Positions 38,504 to 46,212 of a stretch of 64,000 bases of DNA are shown here, piece after piece; within the stretch, counting starts at the first letter, position 1; every line of letters starts with the position of its first letter. The position numbers and the translations under genes were made by a program. The DNA is from a virus (taxonomy: Duplodnaviria > Caudoviricetes), in IMG/VR virus record IMGVR_UViG_3300030104_006170, one strand, 5' to 3'. The notes beneath the pieces were generated by a model. That model did no database searches, had not been told where the DNA came from, and saw only the letters and a list, made by a program, of their open reading frames with translations.

Positions 38504-40303
38504 ATGGCTTTAGGATATCAAAATAGGGATAATGCACAGAATTCTGTGGTAAGAAATAAGTTTATTACTTTTGCCACTTGTGTAAATAATTCTGACCCAA
38601 AAAGAGCTGGTAGAATTCGTGCTATACCATCAGAAGGTGAAAATGTCACAATATCCAAGTGTGATGACCCAATTCAGTGTATAAAAATATATGATGAATT
38701 AGCTGCAAAAGGTGAACTTATTATTGGTGGTTCAAAACTACAGTACATACCCTGGGGTGTAAATGACCCATATGTGTTCCCATCTTTTTTACCACTTCCT
38801 ATTAATGTTATACCTAAAGTAGGTGAAGGTGTAAAGTTAATATCTTGGGAATCGGAAAAAAATCTAAACCAGGAGTATATTGGTCCCATGATTTCACAAC
38901 CAGGTAGTATAGAATTAGAAAATTATAAAAGTGGTAAAGAAAACACTGCTGCGGGGGTTAATAACTCACCTCTTATGCCTTATGCTGTACCGGTGGGCGA
39001 TTCAAAAATAAACCCAATAAATTTACCACTCCCCCAAAGTAAAGGAAGTTTTGTGAATCCTGACGACATAGGAATTTATGGTAGAAATAATACAGATATT
39101 ATTTTAGGTATGTCGGAAAATGCTGTAGAAGACGAAACTCCGGAAGATGTTGAGGCGTCTTATCCCCAGATACTTTTACGTTCTGGTAAATTAATTAAAA
39201 ATACTTCTATTAGTTCGAGACCAACAACTAATTTTAAACCTACTTTTATACAAATAAGCACCTTTCCACAAACTCTAACTAGAGTAGAAGTGGAAAAAGA
39301 AATAGTTACAACAGAAGATTTACCTTTAAATACTTTAATAGAATATAAGATGGACCGTGCAGCCCTATGTCAATCACCAATGGTTTTTAATGGTGAAGTA
39401 GTGGTATATAAAATGCCCCCTAAAGATAGTGCAGGACAAGCACCTATGTGTTGGCAGTCTACAAATTCAACCCCATACAATACTAGTGCACCCCCAGCAC
39501 CTACTACACCACAGGTTGGTCTTACAATGAATTTTGTAAATGCTCCTTCTATAGAAGATATAGGTAGACAAATAAATTCTTTAATATCCCATATAGATAA
39601 AGAACAATGGAATAAGGTTTTAAAACAACCAAATGTTAGTTGGGCAACTAAAACATTTAGTAGTTCTGTAGATTTAAATAATCAAAATAATCTAGGTGCA
39701 TTTTTAGGTAATACACACCCATTATATTTTAGACCTGAAGCCACACTATTAGAAACAATGGAAGAAGGTGAACCTGCAGCTTGGCCTGTTCCTGGTACAT
39801 TTGATGCTGTAAAAGAAGAAGTTACAAAATTAAAAGCTACTATAGGTTTAGATGGGGTAAAAAATAAAGGTGGTGGTTTAGCTTTTGAGAATGCTGAAGG
39901 TAGTAGAGAGGTTAAACAAGAAACCAAAAAGGTAAAGGAGACTGTACCTGGACCCCCAAAACCACAACAAGAAGGTATAATTACCGCGGCAGGTGAAAAA
40001 ATATATTTATTTTCATATAACACGACTGATTTAAATGGTCCTATTACATTAACCTCTAATTACGGAATACCCCAAGCAAAATTTATAGATGATATAGATA
40101 AAAAAACTAATTCCCTTGTTAGAGGAGAAAAACTTCTGGAACTTTTAGTGAAAATGGCAGCGTTTCAAGCTAATCACACACACTCCTGTCCTGGAGTTGC
40201 TTCTTGTCCTACAGCACATGATGGTACAACCACCTCAGATATAGATAAATTAATTAAAGAAGCTGGTGAAACTATCCTTAATAAAAATATAAGGATTAAC
40301 TAG
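38504..40303 (+). CDS. Baseplate central spike / hub (T4 gp5 / VgrG-like)
   Basis: N-terminal OB-fold motif CVNNSDPKRAGRIRA; GRNNTDI; C-terminal LVRGEKL...NHTH (HxH tip motif). Confidence 0.75.
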   Translation: MALGYQNRDNAQNSVVRNKFITFATCVNNSDPKRAGRIRAIPSEGENVTISKCDDPIQCIKIYDELAAKGELIIGGSKLQYIPWGVNDPYVFPSFLPLPINVIPKVGEGVKLISWESEKNLNQEYIGPMISQPGSIELENYKSGKENTAAGVNNSPLMPYAVPVGDSKINPINLPLPQSKGSFVNPDDIGIYGRNNTDIILGMSENAVEDETPEDVEASYPQILLRSGKLIKNTSISSRPTTNFKPTFIQISTFPQTLTRVEVEKEIVTTEDLPLNTLIEYKMDRAALCQSPMVFNGEVVVYKMPPKDSAGQAPMCWQSTNSTPYNTSAPPAPTTPQVGLTMNFVNAPSIEDIGRQINSLISHIDKEQWNKVLKQPNVSWATKTFSSSVDLNNQNNLGAFLGNTHPLYFRPEATLLETMEEGEPAAWPVPGTFDAVKEEVTKLKATIGLDGVKNKGGGLAFENAEGSREVKQETKKVKETVPGPPKPQQEGIITAAGEKIYLFSYNTTDLNGPITLTSNYGIPQAKFIDDIDKKTNSLVRGEKLLELLVKMAAFQANHTHSCPGVASCPTAHDGTTTSDIDKLIKEAGETILNKNIRIN

Positions 40304-40304
40304 A

Positions 40305-40312
40305 TATTTATA
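40305..40312 (+). promoter_or_regulatory. Putative late promoter TATTTATA
   Basis: 15 nt upstream of the ATG at 40328. Confidence 0.7.
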
Positions 40313-40327
40313 GTAAAAGTAAAAAGA

Positions 40328-41821
40328 ATGATACACAGGTCATATTTTAGCAAAAACAATACTCTACTTGCAAATAACGAAGTTAATACTGGGAGAAATC
40401 CAGTAACACAACTTTTTTACGGTAAGGGTGTAACTAATAGTTGTAGATTTACTGGTTCTGCTGACCACATATGTAATGGACAAACAGGATTTACTAAAAA
40501 TTTAGATACTGGATTTAGTAGATTTATTTTTAATTTAGATTTAGAAGATTTAAGAGAAAAAATAAACAGTTGTTGTATACCCGCATTAACATCTTTAACT
40601 CACACCATAAAAATGACTAATACTTCTCATTTTGATGATACTTTGATGAATGATAAAATATTAGTTGATGGTACCAGACGTGCTACATCTTTTACTTTGA
40701 TGTTATTTAAAGCTACTACTGGTAGCTCTTGGTCAGAAGGTGTTGGTTATGATTATCAAGTTGCTGATGGTATGTTTGCACCGGAATTTGATTTAACTCA
40801 TTCTACAAGACCCAGTAATTGGTTTTCCTCGACAACTCTAAGTATGTGGGCTATTCCAGGTACCTATGATAATAATGATAATACAACTTATACTGTTTTA
40901 GACACGCAAGTTTTTGACCAAGGTAATGAAAATATAGAATTTAATAGTTTAGCACTTAATACGGAGATAAATAATTTACTAATTTTACCAACAGCAACTA
41001 CTTCAGCTAACACATATGGGATTGCTTTTATTCCAGCTTTTGAAAATATAACCGGTTTAACAGAGGCTTATTCTGTTGGTTTTTTTAGTAGACACACTCA
41101 AACATTTTATGAACCTTTTTTAGAAACTACTTTTGATGATGTTATAAATGATGATAGGGGAGATTTTCATTTAGGGGTTAATAATAGATTATTTTTGTAC
41201 GCTTATGACCATAATGGTCATCCAATATGTTTTGATTTATTACCTACTGTAGATATTAAGGACTGTAATGAAAGTACGGTTGCTACTTACACCGCAACCC
41301 AATTAACTTGTGGTGTTTATTATATACCACTATCTTTAACTAGTGTAGCACAAAGTCCACCAGTTATATATACCGATACTTGGTCTAATTTATTTGTGGG
41401 TGGTATATCACAACCTAACGTAACAAATGAATTTATAATTTATAATAATAATTTAAGTATTGGTTCAACCGCGGGTGAACCTAAAATATATGGTTATTCT
41501 GTATCTGGAATTAAAGAAGATGAAAAAGTAACTAATGGAGAAACAAGAAAAGTATTTGTTTCAACCAGAGTTCCTTACACTGTAGATGAACAAGTTTTAG
41601 TCGATAATTTGCAATATCGTCTCTATGTAACCCAAGGTACCACTCAAGTGGAGGTAATTCCTTGGACACCCATTAACAAGTCATTTACACACAATTATTT
41701 TATGTTAGATACAGGATGGATGATTCCTAATGAATATCACCTAGATATCAAAGCAACTTCTAACCAACAAGTAGATATTTATAGGAAAGTAATAAAATTT
41801 CAAGTAATTAATCAATTATGA
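40328..41821 (+). CDS. Putative structural protein (beta-rich, S/T-rich)
   Basis: 497 aa; late motif upstream; SWSEGVGYDY and YEPFLET patterns. Confidence 0.6.
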   Translation: MIHRSYFSKNNTLLANNEVNTGRNPVTQLFYGKGVTNSCRFTGSADHICNGQTGFTKNLDTGFSRFIFNLDLEDLREKINSCCIPALTSLTHTIKMTNTSHFDDTLMNDKILVDGTRRATSFTLMLFKATTGSSWSEGVGYDYQVADGMFAPEFDLTHSTRPSNWFSSTTLSMWAIPGTYDNNDNTTYTVLDTQVFDQGNENIEFNSLALNTEINNLLILPTATTSANTYGIAFIPAFENITGLTEAYSVGFFSRHTQTFYEPFLETTFDDVINDDRGDFHLGVNNRLFLYAYDHNGHPICFDLLPTVDIKDCNESTVATYTATQLTCGVYYIPLSLTSVAQSPPVIYTDTWSNLFVGGISQPNVTNEFIIYNNNLSIGSTAGEPKIYGYSVSGIKEDEKVTNGETRKVFVSTRVPYTVDEQVLVDNLQYRLYVTQGTTQVEVIPWTPINKSFTHNYFMLDTGWMIPNEYHLDIKATSNQQVDIYRKVIKFQVINQL

Positions 41822-42303
41822 AAAAAATAAGAATATCTGAAAGTGAACTAGTAGATTTAATAGAAAAACTAGTTAAAGAAAATCTAAGTAATGGTACTGG
41901 ATTTGACTTTGGTATGTTGGGTACACCTACATCAAAGTATAAGGATTTATACGAAGATGAAGATATGGAAGAGGAAAAAGAGTTAGATGAAGATGAAGTT
42001 AATGTGGATACAGCACAGACTGGTGATAAAACATTAAATGTTAATGTAATGAAACAAACTAACCAATCTGACTGGATGGGTGAAAATAAAATTACTGAAT
42101 CTCAGTTAGTTAGAAGGTTATCAAAAAAATTACATGAAGCAGAAGGAAAAGGATGTGCTGAATCAGAAGGTGGTTCTGGTTGTATTAAAAAAAGAGGAGA
42201 CGGCTGGGTTATATTAAATAACAAAAAAGGTGGTGTCTGGAGAAAATGTACTAGTGAAAAAGATTGTCAAGAACAATTAGACGCTTTTCACGCTAATAAA
42301 TAA
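41818..42303 (+). CDS. Hypothetical protein with N-terminal MKKIRISESELVDLIEKLVKE motif and a small Cys-containing C-terminal domain
   Basis: 161 aa; ATGA overlap with the upstream stop. Confidence 0.7.
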   Translation: MKKIRISESELVDLIEKLVKENLSNGTGFDFGMLGTPTSKYKDLYEDEDMEEEKELDEDEVNVDTAQTGDKTLNVNVMKQTNQSDWMGENKITESQLVRRLSKKLHEAEGKGCAESEGGSGCIKKRGDGWVILNNKKGGVWRKCTSEKDCQEQLDAFHANK

Positions 42304-42323
42304 AACTTAAAAAATTAAAAATT

Positions 42324-42389
42324 ATGAAATGTGATTGTCAAATATGTAAGTGTGGTACTAAATGTGACTGTACTTGTTGTGACTGTTAG
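42324..42389 (+). CDS. Metallothionein-like micro-protein (21 aa, 9 Cys), absent from the ORF track
   Basis: MKCDCQICKCGTKCDCTCCDC-TAG; leader AAAATTAAAAATT-ATG like other genes here; terminator 31 nt downstream. Confidence 0.7.
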   Translation: MKCDCQICKCGTKCDCTCCDC

Positions 42390-42420
42390 ATAACAGTTAA
42401 TTAAAAAATAAAGATATAAA

Positions 42421-42449
42421 AAAACCACTCAAAAGAGTGGTTTTTGTTT
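42421..42449. terminator. Bidirectional intrinsic terminator
   Basis: AAAACCACTC-AAAA-GAGTGGTTTT perfect stem between convergent genes. Confidence 0.88.
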
Positions 42450-42450
42450 T

Positions 42451-42741
42451 TTAGATATCTTCCTCATCATAATCATATTCATGAGTTACAGTTGTTCTAG
42501 TTGGTTCTGGTTCTTCTTCCACAACAACCTCATCTTTCGGTGAGAAATTTTCTGCAGCTGTAAAACCAAGACCTGCCATTACAATCCATTGTAAAGACTC
42601 GAATAAATTATTGTCAATTGTGAAATCCCAAAAAAGATTTGCTGTGTAACCAATTAACATAAATAGAAGACATACGAAAGTAACAAATCTTTTACTAGAG
42701 ACTTTACCTTCACTACTTAACATGTTTTTAAAGAAGTTCAT
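42451..42741 (-). CDS. Two-TM membrane protein, holin candidate
   Basis: Likely start is the ATG at 42741 (MNFFKNMLSSEGKVSSKRFVTFVCLLFMLIG...LQWIVMAGLGF); acidic tail; late motif upstream. Confidence 0.55.
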   Translation of the reverse strand: MNFFKNMLSSEGKVSSKRFVTFVCLLFMLIGYTANLFWDFTIDNNLFESLQWIVMAGLGFTAAENFSPKDEVVVEEEPEPTRTTVTHEYDYDEEDI

Positions 42742-42753
42742 AAGCGTTTTTAT

Positions 42754-42761
42754 TATAAATA
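42754..42761 (-). promoter_or_regulatory. Putative late promoter TATTTATA
   Basis: 12 nt upstream of the ATG at 42741. Confidence 0.7.
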
Positions 42762-42770
42762 TCAGTGCAT

Positions 42771-42797
42771 AAAAAAAAGCCCTCATAAAGAGGGCTT
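42771..42797 (-). terminator. Intrinsic terminator after the major capsid gene
   Basis: AAGCCCTC-ATAAA-GAGGGCTT stem followed by a U8 run on the - strand. Confidence 0.88.
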
Positions 42798-42822
42798 CTT
42801 TTATATATAACTTATTCAGTTA

Positions 42823-44655
42823 TTAGAATCTTTTCAATTCTCTTACATCAAATGTTCTAACTCCATCAACAGTGATTCTTCCATAGAATCTGTTGTTAAC
42901 CATTTTCTTAGCGTATCTAGTCATGATACCTTTGATTGGTGTAAAGTTGAATGGGTTATACATTGTAGGTGTCAACTGTAATGGTACATATGGTGCGTAA
43001 ACGTACCCAGTATCCAATAAAGATGTTCCTTTATGTCCAATTAACACTTGGTTAGCTGGGAAGTAAGGGTCTCTATATACAGTAAATCTACCTGATAAAG
43101 TACCTATTTTCTCAATACCCATGTTATATTGGTCTTGTTCTGGTGCTGCGTTTGAAACGTGGAAGTACTCCAAGTCATCAAATATTGCAGAAACTTCAGA
43201 AGAACATACAATCCAGTTAGCCCCACCTCTCAATGTTGACTTGTGAATTTGAGCTGATAACTGATTAATAGCAGTAATCAACGTTTGATTCCAGTCTTTT
43301 TGAGTGTAAGGTGCTTGACCTGCAGAGAATCTCTTCCATCCGTTGTAATCCCATCTTAAGTCCCAAGCTGCTCCTTTTCTAAGGTCTCTCAAGATTTCTC
43401 TATCGATTTCAGCTGCAACTTCTTCAGATAATAAAGCTGTTAATTCAGCTTCAGCATCGATGTTATGGAATGCAGAAACATCTTGTGCAAGTTCTGGTGA
43501 CCATTGTGCTCTTAATTTTCTTTCAGTAACAGAAACTGTAACAGCTTGTAAGTCGAAAGAAACTTCACCCATTTGGTCTTCAAATTCAAGAGTTGAGTAC
43601 TGTCTCCAAGTAGCTGTGATATTTTGTGACGCTGCTGTAGAACCTACATAACCATCAATCGAACGATAAGATGTTTCACCACAATCAACACATGCTGGAC
43701 ATGAAGTATCAACTTCTAAATAAATATTTCCTTGTGAATCACAAACGTCAGTTCTATCAACAATTCCAAAACCATACTTTTGTGTAACAACACGGAATAA
43801 CATTGGTTTATCAACACCGTAAACCATTGTTCCACCTGAGTTTGCGTTAGTAGAAGAATTACAACACCATACTCCAGATGCGTTTGATAACGTTAATGAA
43901 GCTAAGAACTCTTCAGTATCTTGCTCATTTCCATCAGGTCCAGTTAATTTACCAACACCAGCAGTATTAAATCCTGCTAATTTAACGATAGCACTTCTTG
44001 TACCACCTTTTGGTATACCCACACCATAACCTAAAGTTGTAGTAGCGTTACATCCAGATAATGAGTTCATCGCTGCATAATCTTGTAATGTATTACCGTT
44101 CCAAATTACGTTTGTTGTAGAAGCTGCACTTGACGTGTAGTTACCTTTTGAGTAGTCATAAAGACCGTCATCAGCTGCTGTAGGTGCGTTACCAGCATAG
44201 TACTCATCATATAATGAAGTAGATGCTGCAGAAAATGCTGCTCCTGGTGTAGTAGGTACATTAGGTGCAGTACCAGTTTCTGGTGCTCCATAAGGTGCAT
44301 AGTGTGTTCCACCTGGTTGTGCTCCAATTTTAGGTACAAAGTAGAACAATTTACCGATTGGTAAGTTCATAGCTTGTACAGAAACGATATCGTTTGCCAA
44401 TAATTTAGAGAAAACTCTTCTAATTATTGGGAAAACAACTGTTTCGAATGAACCTGAATCAGAAGCTGTAGTAGCTTCGTTGATTAGGTTTGTTGCTTGG
44501 TTTTCATATAGCTGAGCTATATTTTCTCTAACGTGACCTTTAAGTCCGTCTAGGAATCCAAGACCATCCCATTTTGCTAAGGTATCTTCTTTGATAACTT
44601 TTAGGTGTTTTAACCCAATGTTACCAACCATACCTGATTCTAATAGTGCTCCCAT
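42823..44655 (-). CDS. gp23: Major capsid protein (T4 gp23-like) with a large insertion
   Basis: IVSVQAMNLPIGKLFY, RKLRAQWSPELAQDVSAFHNIDAEAEL...EIDREI, GYVYAPYVPL, FTPIKGIMTRYA. Confidence 0.97.
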   Translation of the reverse strand: MGALLESGMVGNIGLKHLKVIKEDTLAKWDGLGFLDGLKGHVRENIAQLYENQATNLINEATTASDSGSFETVVFPIIRRVFSKLLANDIVSVQAMNLPIGKLFYFVPKIGAQPGGTHYAPYGAPETGTAPNVPTTPGAAFSAASTSLYDEYYAGNAPTAADDGLYDYSKGNYTSSAASTTNVIWNGNTLQDYAAMNSLSGCNATTTLGYGVGIPKGGTRSAIVKLAGFNTAGVGKLTGPDGNEQDTEEFLASLTLSNASGVWCCNSSTNANSGGTMVYGVDKPMLFRVVTQKYGFGIVDRTDVCDSQGNIYLEVDTSCPACVDCGETSYRSIDGYVGSTAASQNITATWRQYSTLEFEDQMGEVSFDLQAVTVSVTERKLRAQWSPELAQDVSAFHNIDAEAELTALLSEEVAAEIDREILRDLRKGAAWDLRWDYNGWKRFSAGQAPYTQKDWNQTLITAINQLSAQIHKSTLRGGANWIVCSSEVSAIFDDLEYFHVSNAAPEQDQYNMGIEKIGTLSGRFTVYRDPYFPANQVLIGHKGTSLLDTGYVYAPYVPLQLTPTMYNPFNFTPIKGIMTRYAKKMVNNRFYGRITVDGVRTFDVRELKRF

Positions 44656-44685
44656 AGTTTTTTTATTTTTTTTAAAAAGCGTTTA

Positions 44686-46212
44686 TTATAATTTAGACAT
44701 TAAGTCTTTCATCCTACTAAATTGAGGGTTTTCGTAAATTTTTGATTCCAATAATTTACCTCCACCACTAGTAGGTGATTTAGTAATTTTCTGCTCCACT
44801 GACTCAGAAATTGTTTTTGTAGGTTTAGCTACTTCCTGAGAAAGTTCTTCTTTGATTACCTTATACAACTCTTTAGAACCTTTTAATGAGTTTATCCCAT
44901 CAAAACGTTTTAATATGTTGATTTTTTCCTGCTTGGTAGTTGAATGTTCAGTAAATAGACGTGTTACGTAAGCTAAGTTTGAATTAAACACACCCACTTC
45001 ATTCAGTTTATCTCTAAAAGTTGTCAAAGCTTTCTTATAGTCAGAATTTTTAACTTTTAAAGTTTCTACCTCTTCTTTAAGAAGATTGTAGGACTTTCTT
45101 ATACGACTTTCACCAAGGTTACGATTGTTAGTGATTCCTTTTCTAAAAGAAGGCTTGTGTTTTCCACCAGACTCTCTTCCAAACCCTAAAGTTCTTGAAG
45201 CTTCTTTCATTTCGTAATCTCTATGAGTTGCTGACTGGTCACCTTTTTTAGCTCCACCTTCTTTTACTTCTTCGTAATCTAAATGTGTTGCTGATTGGTC
45301 CCCTTTTTTAGCTCCTCCTTCTTTCATTTCGTAATCTCTGTGAGTTGCAGATTGGTCTCCTTTTTTAGCACCCCCTTCCTTCATATAATCTCTATGTGTT
45401 GCTGATTGGTCTCCCTTCTTAGCACCACCTTCCTTCATATAATCTCTGTGAGTTGCGGATTGGTCACCTTTTTTAGCTCCGCCTTCTTCCATATCTTCCA
45501 TTTCCATCATGTCTCCACCTTCCTTTTCATAATCTTTAAGTTTCCTTTTCGATTCAGGTTGGTCTACGCCCATAACTTTACCATGTCCTTCGTCCATGTC
45601 ATCCATTTCGTCTAGCTCAATTTCATAAACTATTTCTTCGTCCATTTCTTCCATCTCATCCATGTCATCCATTTCGTCCATGTTATCCATGTCCATTTCT
45701 GACACTTCTGTTTTGTTTTCGTTGACTGCTTTTTTCATAGTTTTTGTTTTTTTGCTTTCGTCTAATTTAATGATGTATTCAGTATCAGTAGTATTGTCGG
45801 TTAACTCAATTTCGTCATCGTCCTGTTGGATAATGATTCCATCTTCGTCTCCCATTGCTTTAAATACTTTTAATACTTCTTCATCGGATGCTAATGTTAA
45901 ATCTAGAGGTGGCAGTTCAGGTAACTCTACGTCGTCTGTCTCGTCCTCAATATCAAGTTCCATATCATCTCCCATTTCAGTTTCCATGTCCATTTCCATT
46001 TCGTCATCGTCCATGTCATCGTCTAGGTCAATCATATCAACTTCTTCTTCTTCTTGCTCCTTAAGGTAATCGTCTGTATTTAACGATTCTTTTACTAATT
46101 CGTGAATTTCTTCCTTCATTGTTGAAGCAAGTATTTCTTTTGCATTAGACTTCATAGTTTCTTCCAACTGTTCCGCCTCGAGCAACGCTTTTTCTAAAAT
46201 TGATTCGCTCAC
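44686..46212 (-). CDS. Prohead core scaffolding protein (gp22-like)
   Basis: Lies between the protease and capsid genes; highly acidic and coiled-coil; LNEVGVFNSNLAY C-terminal motif; GTG start. Confidence 0.8.
   Translation of the reverse strand: MSESILEKALLEAEQLEETMKSNAKEILASTMKEEIHELVKESLNTDDYLKEQEEEEVDMIDLDDDMDDDEMEMDMETEMGDDMELDIEDETDDVELPELPPLDLTLASDEEVLKVFKAMGDEDGIIIQQDDDEIELTDNTTDTEYIIKLDESKKTKTMKKAVNENKTEVSEMDMDNMDEMDDMDEMEEMDEEIVYEIELDEMDDMDEGHGKVMGVDQPESKRKLKDYEKEGGDMMEMEDMEEGGAKKGDQSATHRDYMKEGGAKKGDQSATHRDYMKEGGAKKGDQSATHRDYEMKEGGAKKGDQSATHLDYEEVKEGGAKKGDQSATHRDYEMKEASRTLGFGRESGGKHKPSFRKGITNNRNLGESRIRKSYNLLKEEVETLKVKNSDYKKALTTFRDKLNEVGVFNSNLAYVTRLFTEHSTTKQEKINILKRFDGINSLKGSKELYKVIKEELSQEVAKPTKTISESVEQKITKSPTSGGGKLLESKIYENPQFSRMKDLMSKL
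45203..45488 (-). repeat. Five tandem coding repeats EGGAKKGDQSATH(R/L)DY(E)(M/V)K (54-60 nt units)
   Basis: Visible in protein and DNA; synonymous positions differ between copies; boundaries approximate. Confidence 0.92.

Follow-up and report, generated by a model that had tools for sequence, protein, structure and literature searches.

A 21-codon, nine-cysteine gene of marine phages encodes a candidate free-standing metallothionein-like peptide

Does an open reading frame of 21 codons, nine of which specify cysteine, encode a protein in a phage genome, and what would so small a protein do? The frame lies in a 64,000-nt stretch of DNA from a virus of the Caudoviricetes (IMG/VR record IMGVR_UViG_3300030104_006170), referred to below as the window. 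An earlier note on this DNA proposed that the frame is a minimal phage metallothionein, expressed late in infection. We have asked whether the frame is a gene, where else it occurs, how closely its product resembles known metallothioneins, and which other readings have to be weighed.

The micro-gene, its leader and its terminator

The features of the locus are as follows.

41818..42303, plus strand: gene for a 161-aa protein with a conserved four-Cys C-terminal motif; a constant neighbour in this phage clade
42304..42323, plus strand: A-rich leader of 20 nt without a Shine-Dalgarno (SD) motif, between the TAA of the 161-aa gene and the ATG of the micro-ORF
42324..42389, plus strand: 21-codon micro-gene for MKCDCQICKCGTKCDCTCCDC, from ATG to TAG; supported by its sequence, its codons, conservation in relatives and a chance estimate
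42420..42453 (hairpin 42420-42445), unstranded: terminator-like hairpin with an 11-bp stem, the loop AAAG and a T run, located between the convergent transcription units
42451..42786, minus strand: gene for a 111-aa hydrophobic protein, convergent; it ends the capsid-side transcription unit and forms a boundary outside the micro-gene

Translation of 42324..42389 gives the peptide that had been described from the sequence, with cysteine at 9 of 21 residues (43%) in CxC, CxxC and CC patterns and with neither aromatic residues nor histidine. The cysteines form the skeleton C-x-C-x2-C-x-C-x3-C-x-C-x-C-C-x-C, and all nine are encoded by TGT. The claim that nine in-frame TGT codons are unlikely to arise by chance stands: given the TGY frequency of the window, the expected number of 19-codon runs with nine or more TGY codons is 3.7e-5 per window, and when the window was simulated 200 times under an order-2 Markov model, no open 19-residue stretch had more than 7 cysteines. 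With an expectation of about 4e-5 and a simulated maximum of 7, we conclude that the nine-Cys frame is not a product of chance. Standard ORF callers miss a frame of 21 codons, as had been anticipated.

The leader is 65% A, which places it in the top 2.4% of all ATGs in the window, and the statement that it is of the kind used by real genes here proved correct. Indeed, the leaders of the 53 window ORFs of at least 150 aa average 48% A, as against 35% for all ATGs, and SD-like leaders precede only 3 of these 53. Leaders elsewhere in the family described below are A-rich as well (115 members), with an SD-like motif in just two. The 20-nt spacing after the 161-aa gene implies that the micro-ORF is co-transcribed with that gene. 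Downstream, the terminator-like hairpin starts 30 nt past the micro-ORF stop and scores on both strands. The earlier note had placed the frame at the end of a late transcript, ahead of a terminator. It is the last gene before the terminator, and that part of the statement holds; lateness was read from the convergent gp23-type major capsid protein gene, which lies beyond the 111-aa gene, and the co-directional genes upstream have no family matches and hence lend no evidence of lateness.

Several observations concern the surroundings of the micro-gene. The 161-aa protein has no Pfam or PHROG match; its C-terminus (window 42150-42290) carries the four-Cys motif GKGCAESEGGSGC...GGVWRKC...C, which is kept in the related locus L004 and may form a small metal- or disulfide-stabilised domain. 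Further upstream, at 38504-41821, are two large genes (599 aa and 497 aa) that are co-directional with the micro-ORF; neither product matches a Pfam or PHROG family. IMG/VR relatives encode a counterpart with 70% identity to the 497-aa protein, and we take both products to be conserved, functionally unassigned proteins. For the 111-aa protein there is no significant family in Pfam or PHROG, and BLASTP finds no similarity between it and the holin with three transmembrane segments (3TM) that adjoins other members of the family. Metatranscriptome contigs over 40300-44700 cover mainly the capsid gene, and cover is thin near the micro-ORF. ARAGORN found no tRNA or tmRNA gene in window 1-64000.

Conservation, contexts and cellular copies

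The region downstream of the 41818 orthologue in related phages had been named as the place where a lack of conservation would tell against the gene. We therefore anchored a search on orthologues of the 161-aa neighbour, which gave 24 IMG/VR loci and was blind to the cysteine pattern. The micro-ORF is directly downstream in 9 of the 24, and all nine cysteines are kept in every one, such that conservation is clear. When ten sequences are aligned, five of the cysteine codons vary, and only between TGT and TGC; glycine codons vary synonymously between GGT and GGC and threonine codons among ACA, ACG and ACT, and all replacements are conservative (Q/E/K, I/V, K/E, K/T, D/E, T/S/N). The terminator of relatives is at the same place with another stem sequence (ggtcc...ggacc), while the peptide is conserved. 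In four of the nine loci the neighbour protein can be aligned over its first 50 residues only, its C-terminal half and the terminator stem having diverged past recognition, and the peptide is still 81-86% identical. Elsewhere the gene is cleanly missing: in locus L002 the terminator comes straight after the neighbour gene, and in L009 the remnant is ATG AAA ACA TAA alone. An unrelated flavoprotein gene served as a second anchor; of its 73 evaluable loci, 12 have an intact nine-Cys ORF, three have decayed remnants and the others have nothing. The retention of nine cysteines, the synonymous changes, the conservative replacements and the clean absences together argue that, as far as sequence evolution can tell, 42324..42389 is a genuine protein-coding accessory gene under purifying selection at the level of the peptide.

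Pattern searches recovered many more copies. A strict degenerate pattern matched 19 IMG/VR contigs, and a pattern made of the cysteine skeleton, one polar codon and a stop matched at least 120 IMG/VR contigs and at least 120 contigs of a metagenome collection, many of them from TARA and other marine assemblies. Both collections together give at least 179 distinct peptides; the search pattern itself accounts for part of the cysteine invariance in such large sets, and unbiased support for it comes from the two neighbour-anchored samples. Among the matches listed, nearly all peptides are 20-23 aa long, with rare ones of 24-36 aa, and the layout is Met, 0-3 residues, C-x-C-x2-C-x-C-x3-C-x-C-x-C-C-x-C and stop. 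In the IMG/VR set the ATG is 0-3 codons ahead of the first cysteine in 115 of 116 matches listed, and in searches without a stop requirement all true members nonetheless end in Cys-stop. The 179 distinct peptides listed are 42% cysteine, the remainder being N, K, S, D, T, G and E; their approximately 3800 residues include one F, one Y, one H and no W. Beyond the pattern, Gly9 (69%), Ser11 (79%) and Asp or Asn at position 18 (87%) are favoured among the matches listed, and non-Cys codons have a pN/pS of 0.67. The subfamily of the window is Lys-rich, and the majority of the family is Asn-rich. Members of 36 aa (L286 798-905, minus strand, and three metagenome contigs) have 13 cysteines and a duplicated N-terminal CxCxxCxC block, a modular growth that resembles that of larger metallothioneins.

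Searches of deposited phage genomes were negative: tblastn with the peptide gave no match, although the low-complexity filter may hide one, blastn with two family members gave chance partial matches only, and Flavobacterium phage immuto, the nearest cultured phage, has no match even at two mismatches. On cellular genome contigs, a loose cysteine-skeleton pattern hit mostly (TGY)n microsatellites and one true member, in a Cryomorphaceae MAG contig, a result that gives no basis for claiming absence from cellular genomes. What the searches define is a large undescribed family of ocean-phage micro-proteins, also found in a few marine cellular contigs. Gene callers overlook the whole family (at least 179 sequence variants, on hundreds of contigs) simply through its 21-codon length.

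The micro-ORF has 77 different pairs of immediate neighbours among the 116 IMG/VR loci listed, and it is co-directional with the upstream gene in every one of these loci where such a gene lies within 400 nt. In the context of the window it follows the 161-aa gene and faces the capsid operon; in a second context it follows a 3TM holin gene and precedes a block with flavoprotein, AAA_28 kinase and terminase genes; in a third it is found near SegE-like and primase-like genes, in a region of replication type. In this third context it can overlap the gene ahead of it: in L037 and L038 the start overlaps the upstream stop (ATGA), and in other members the upstream TAA sits inside the codons for Cys1-Asn2. 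In some contexts the next gene starts 2-11 nt past the micro-ORF stop. No metal-responsive regulator, transporter or chaperone recurs among the neighbours. As expected of a moron-like gene, the micro-gene is patchy in close relatives (9/24 and 12/73), occupies many contexts and has a cellular counterpart. The gene is dispensable: close relatives and phage immuto do without it.

Three candidate links to neighbours were considered and rejected. A 437-aa FAD/NAD Rossmann flavoprotein is encoded about 115 nt downstream in 37 of the 116 loci listed, but a functional link was dismissed because the flavoprotein occurs without the micro-ORF in approximately 80% of anchored loci and a terminator lies between the two. 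A link to the holin was dismissed because the 3TM holin is found in one context and the membrane protein of the window is dissimilar. An in-frame fusion to an upstream 95-aa ORF was seen in two loci from different samples (L042 1631-1693; L043 7332-7682, minus strand), through one extra A, and a truncated four-Cys remnant (MECNCKNCTCNAS-stop) that overlaps the start of the next gene is fused to the 95-aa ORF in L383 (3230-3330). These fusions were set aside as a Rosetta-stone clue because they stem either from a poly-A run that is longer by one A or from a truncated remnant, and more than 1000 relatives are unfused.

Cellular copies have a context of their own. In six cellular marine contigs (L467, L469 at 2579-2641, L472, L486, L524 and L575) the gene order is glutamine synthetase, CaCA antiporter, tRNA-Arg(ACG), micro-ORF and pirin. 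Their peptides keep the nine cysteines and have changed at most other positions. L552 is likewise a cellular marine contig with a nine-Cys micro-gene. On one contig outside the six the micro-ORF lies between beta-lactamase-fold and PhoD-like genes. No ArsR/SmtB-type gene was seen in the cellular context annotated, where a cation antiporter and pirin are present. In the class to which the Cryomorphaceae MAG belongs, the micro-gene was found in 1 of 401 sampled genomes, namely that MAG. The many contexts and the cellular orthologues point to a general cell-physiological activity that is auxiliary in phages, rather than to a part of the virion or the dedicated partner of one neighbour, and suggest that phages borrow an ordinary cellular activity as an auxiliary gene. 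The idea of a role in late infection does not generalise, given the replication-region and other contexts, the absence of the gene from L002 and L009 and its presence in cellular contigs. The phage of the window recurs in marine and sponge metagenomes of 16 studies. It is a marine gp23-type myophage, and its host is probably among the Bacteroidota (Flavobacteriia), because its capsid is similar to that of a Flavobacterium phage, its leaders are A-rich and lack SD motifs, and a family member lies on the Cryomorphaceae MAG contig.

Resemblance to known metallothioneins

Metallothioneins (MTs) are recognised by low mass (well under 10 kDa), a high content of cysteine in CxC, CxxC and CC arrangements, and scarcity of aromatic residues and histidine. 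The window peptide has 21 residues, nine of them cysteines so arranged, and no aromatic residue or histidine. Judged by such sequence-level features it is metallothionein-like in every respect, and none of the described families includes it. Searches with the window peptide give no match in Pfam or NCBIfam at E up to 1 (none in Pfam up to 10) and none in PHROG. For 101 family members NCBIfam likewise returns nothing, and in Pfam 23 of them touch PF01439 below threshold, with a best E of 0.33. A profile of the 101 members searched against the PDB retrieves only wheat Ec-1 (2kak), with E 8.9, via C-x-C-G-x-x-C-x-C. An ESM Atlas look-up of a 36-aa member leads to a Metallothio_5 cluster at 0.81, which we regard as a weak lead. 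All of these sub-threshold resemblances are to metallothioneins, and at the level of sequence the likeness is compositional. The proposal of a minimal phage metallothionein is accordingly upheld in so far as the gene is conserved and its product has the expected sequence features; it does not extend to membership of a known metallothionein family, none of whose models matches significantly. Full-text literature searches returned no description of a phage mini-metallothionein. "Metallothionein" auxiliary genes are mentioned for soil and fumarole viruses in two reports (PMC12917443; PMC13317609).

The nearest parallel is with the nine-Cys (beta-type) domains of animal metallothioneins. These domains bind three divalent ions. 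Like the phage peptide they have nine cysteines, mostly in CxC pairs, and no aromatic residues, and Lys, Asn, Ser, Asp and Gly are abundant in them. In both, the positions other than cysteine are free to vary and may adjust the preference for a metal. According to two studies, each nine-Cys domain of snail metallothioneins binds three Cd, two-domain proteins form Cd6 or Cu12, and metal specificity is set by the non-Cys residues alone (PMC7084494; PMC3033865). By analogy, the phage peptide would be expected to hold three divalent ions or about six Cu(I) per unit. The animal sequences differ in being domains of proteins of at least 60 aa with another cysteine spacing, whereas the phage product is free-standing at 20-21 aa and has no detectable homology to them.

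Other parallels are more partial. The copper-thionein of the fungus Neurospora crassa, which has seven cysteines, is also a minimal, stand-alone, single-cluster protein built from CxC pairs; it differs in being eukaryotic, in its spacing and in its length of 26 residues, compared with 20-21 aa in the phage peptides. At that length it was "once considered the shortest MTs" (PMC4755600). Plant metallothioneins (PF01439), including wheat Ec-1, share the local C-x-C-G-x-x-C-x-C motif noted above. They are larger and multi-domain, the scores that connect them to the phage family are far short of significance, and Ec-1 also uses histidine. The bacterial proteins SmtA and BmtA (PF02069), together with the viral auxiliary genes mentioned above, are a precedent for the carriage of a metal-thiolate protein by prokaryotes and viruses. 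Proteins of the SmtA type have about 55 aa, a zinc-finger-like fold, histidine ligands and aromatic residues, and the phage peptide matches neither PF02069 nor any NCBIfam model.

Proposed metal binding and its alternatives

We propose that the micro-gene is a phage accessory gene for a free-standing, single-cluster metallothionein-like peptide, and we consider it reasonably probable that the predicted metal binding is its function. The micro-ORF would be the final cistron of a transcript that includes the 161-aa gene ahead of it and ends at the terminator, and its translation would yield a 21-residue peptide that is one nine-Cys ligand set and nothing else. With cysteine at nine of 19 positions and neither a hydrophobic core nor aromatic residues, the peptide has a metal-thiolate cluster as its only plausible folded state. 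The nine thiolates would wrap a single cluster, as in the animal nine-Cys domains, with a load of three Zn(II) or Cd(II) ions or, in the case of Cu(I), up to about six. Inside infected cells this small peptide could then buffer soft metals with high affinity, sequester them or donate them, and it may be unstable in vivo unless loaded with metal. That the Lys-rich and Asn-rich subfamilies reflect different metal preferences is speculation.

If the peptide binds metal, it is shorter than the 26-residue fungal protein once held to be the shortest metallothionein and provides a minimal natural sequence for a nine-thiolate cluster, and trace-metal handling joins the auxiliary functions of abundant marine phages. 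A wider reading, which we put forward tentatively, is that the single-cluster product of 20-21 residues is the smallest metallothionein so far met in nature, encoded in ocean phages and a few lineages of marine cells by an abundant unannotated auxiliary gene with which phages reshape the Zn, Cu and Cd economy of infected cells in trace-metal-limited seawater, with Lys-rich and Asn-rich subfamilies that may be metal-tuned.

A real peptide could also do something other than handle metal in bulk: it might, in a metal-structured or thiol-rich form, bind one particular protein and for example inhibit or modulate a host or phage factor, or it might serve as a redox or thiol scavenger. Binding to host proteins is a common mode of action of phage micro-proteins, the conserved Gly9, Ser11 and Asp/Asn18 could form a surface, and the accessory distribution of the gene resembles that of many host-takeover genes. 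However, nine cysteines in 19 positions leave little room for recognition, the remaining positions are weakly constrained (pN/pS 0.67), no partner gene is conserved across the 77 contexts, and cellular orthologues in a housekeeping-type context speak against a phage-specific target; we consider such a role unlikely. We find it much harder still to see the micro-ORF as a regulatory device, in which ribosomes stall at scarce Cys-tRNA and alter the expression of linked genes, the peptide itself being irrelevant. There is a documented model in the leaderless polycysteine short ORFs of mycobacteria, which are Cys-responsive attenuators (bioRxiv 10.1101/834739) and, like the phage micro-ORF, are tiny, unannotated and dense in cysteine codons; the next gene 2-11 nt past the stop in some contexts would suit this mechanism. 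The mycobacterial ORFs, however, come first in leaderless operons of Cys metabolism and act on downstream genes through stalling, whereas the micro-ORF of the window follows another gene behind a 20-nt leader and is the last cistron, with a terminator 30 nt on and a convergent gene beyond it, such that nothing downstream is left to regulate. The arrangement typical of attenuators, a short ORF upstream of the regulated genes with RNA structure at the downstream RBS, is absent from the window. Moreover, the neighbour-anchored sets conserve the exact spacing of the cysteines and the small polar residues between them, which a sensor that counts codons would not need.

We give very little credence to the two readings that remain. 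One is that the peptide is the precursor of a modified or secreted product, such as a RiPP core, a disulfide-rich toxin or a bacteriocin-like peptide. Its richness in cysteine and its invariant C-terminal cysteine recall some RiPP cores, and a flavoprotein is encoded downstream in 37 of the 116 loci listed. The flavoprotein gene, however, is separated from the micro-ORF by a terminator and occurs without it in most anchored loci, and ten annotated neighbour clusters contain no radical-SAM enzyme, cyclodehydratase, LanD-type enzyme or exporter. A RiPP precursor has a leader or follower and a co-localised maturase; here there is neither a leader nor a signal peptide, the first cysteine being residue 2-4, with 0-3 residues before it and none after the last. 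The other reading is that the frame is not expressed as protein, its conservation being that of a nucleic-acid element or a matter of chance, and the metatranscriptome contigs, which cover mainly the capsid gene, could be cited in its favour. Against a non-coding element, substitutions are codon-periodic, with synonymous TGT/TGC, GGT/GGC and ACN changes, the skeleton has its start and stop codons at constant distances in 115 of the 116 loci listed, and the micro-ORF persists while its flanks diverge; against chance stands the expectation of 4e-5. A metal-binding, metallothionein-like peptide is the reading that we prefer.

A separate observation concerns the flavoprotein gene of 437 aa in a marine phage lineage. 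In loci outside the window (L388-L466, L032, L110 and L294) the gene is preceded by a hairpin, for example in the last ~130 nt before its start, which is present with or without the Cys micro-ORF and has no Rfam match. Its loop, GATTCATAGCC, is nearly invariant, and its stem covaries (gttcg/cgaac, gactg/cagtc, gtccg/cggac, gactag/ctagtc). Next come a terminator hairpin of high GC content and the conserved box "cgtatatt".
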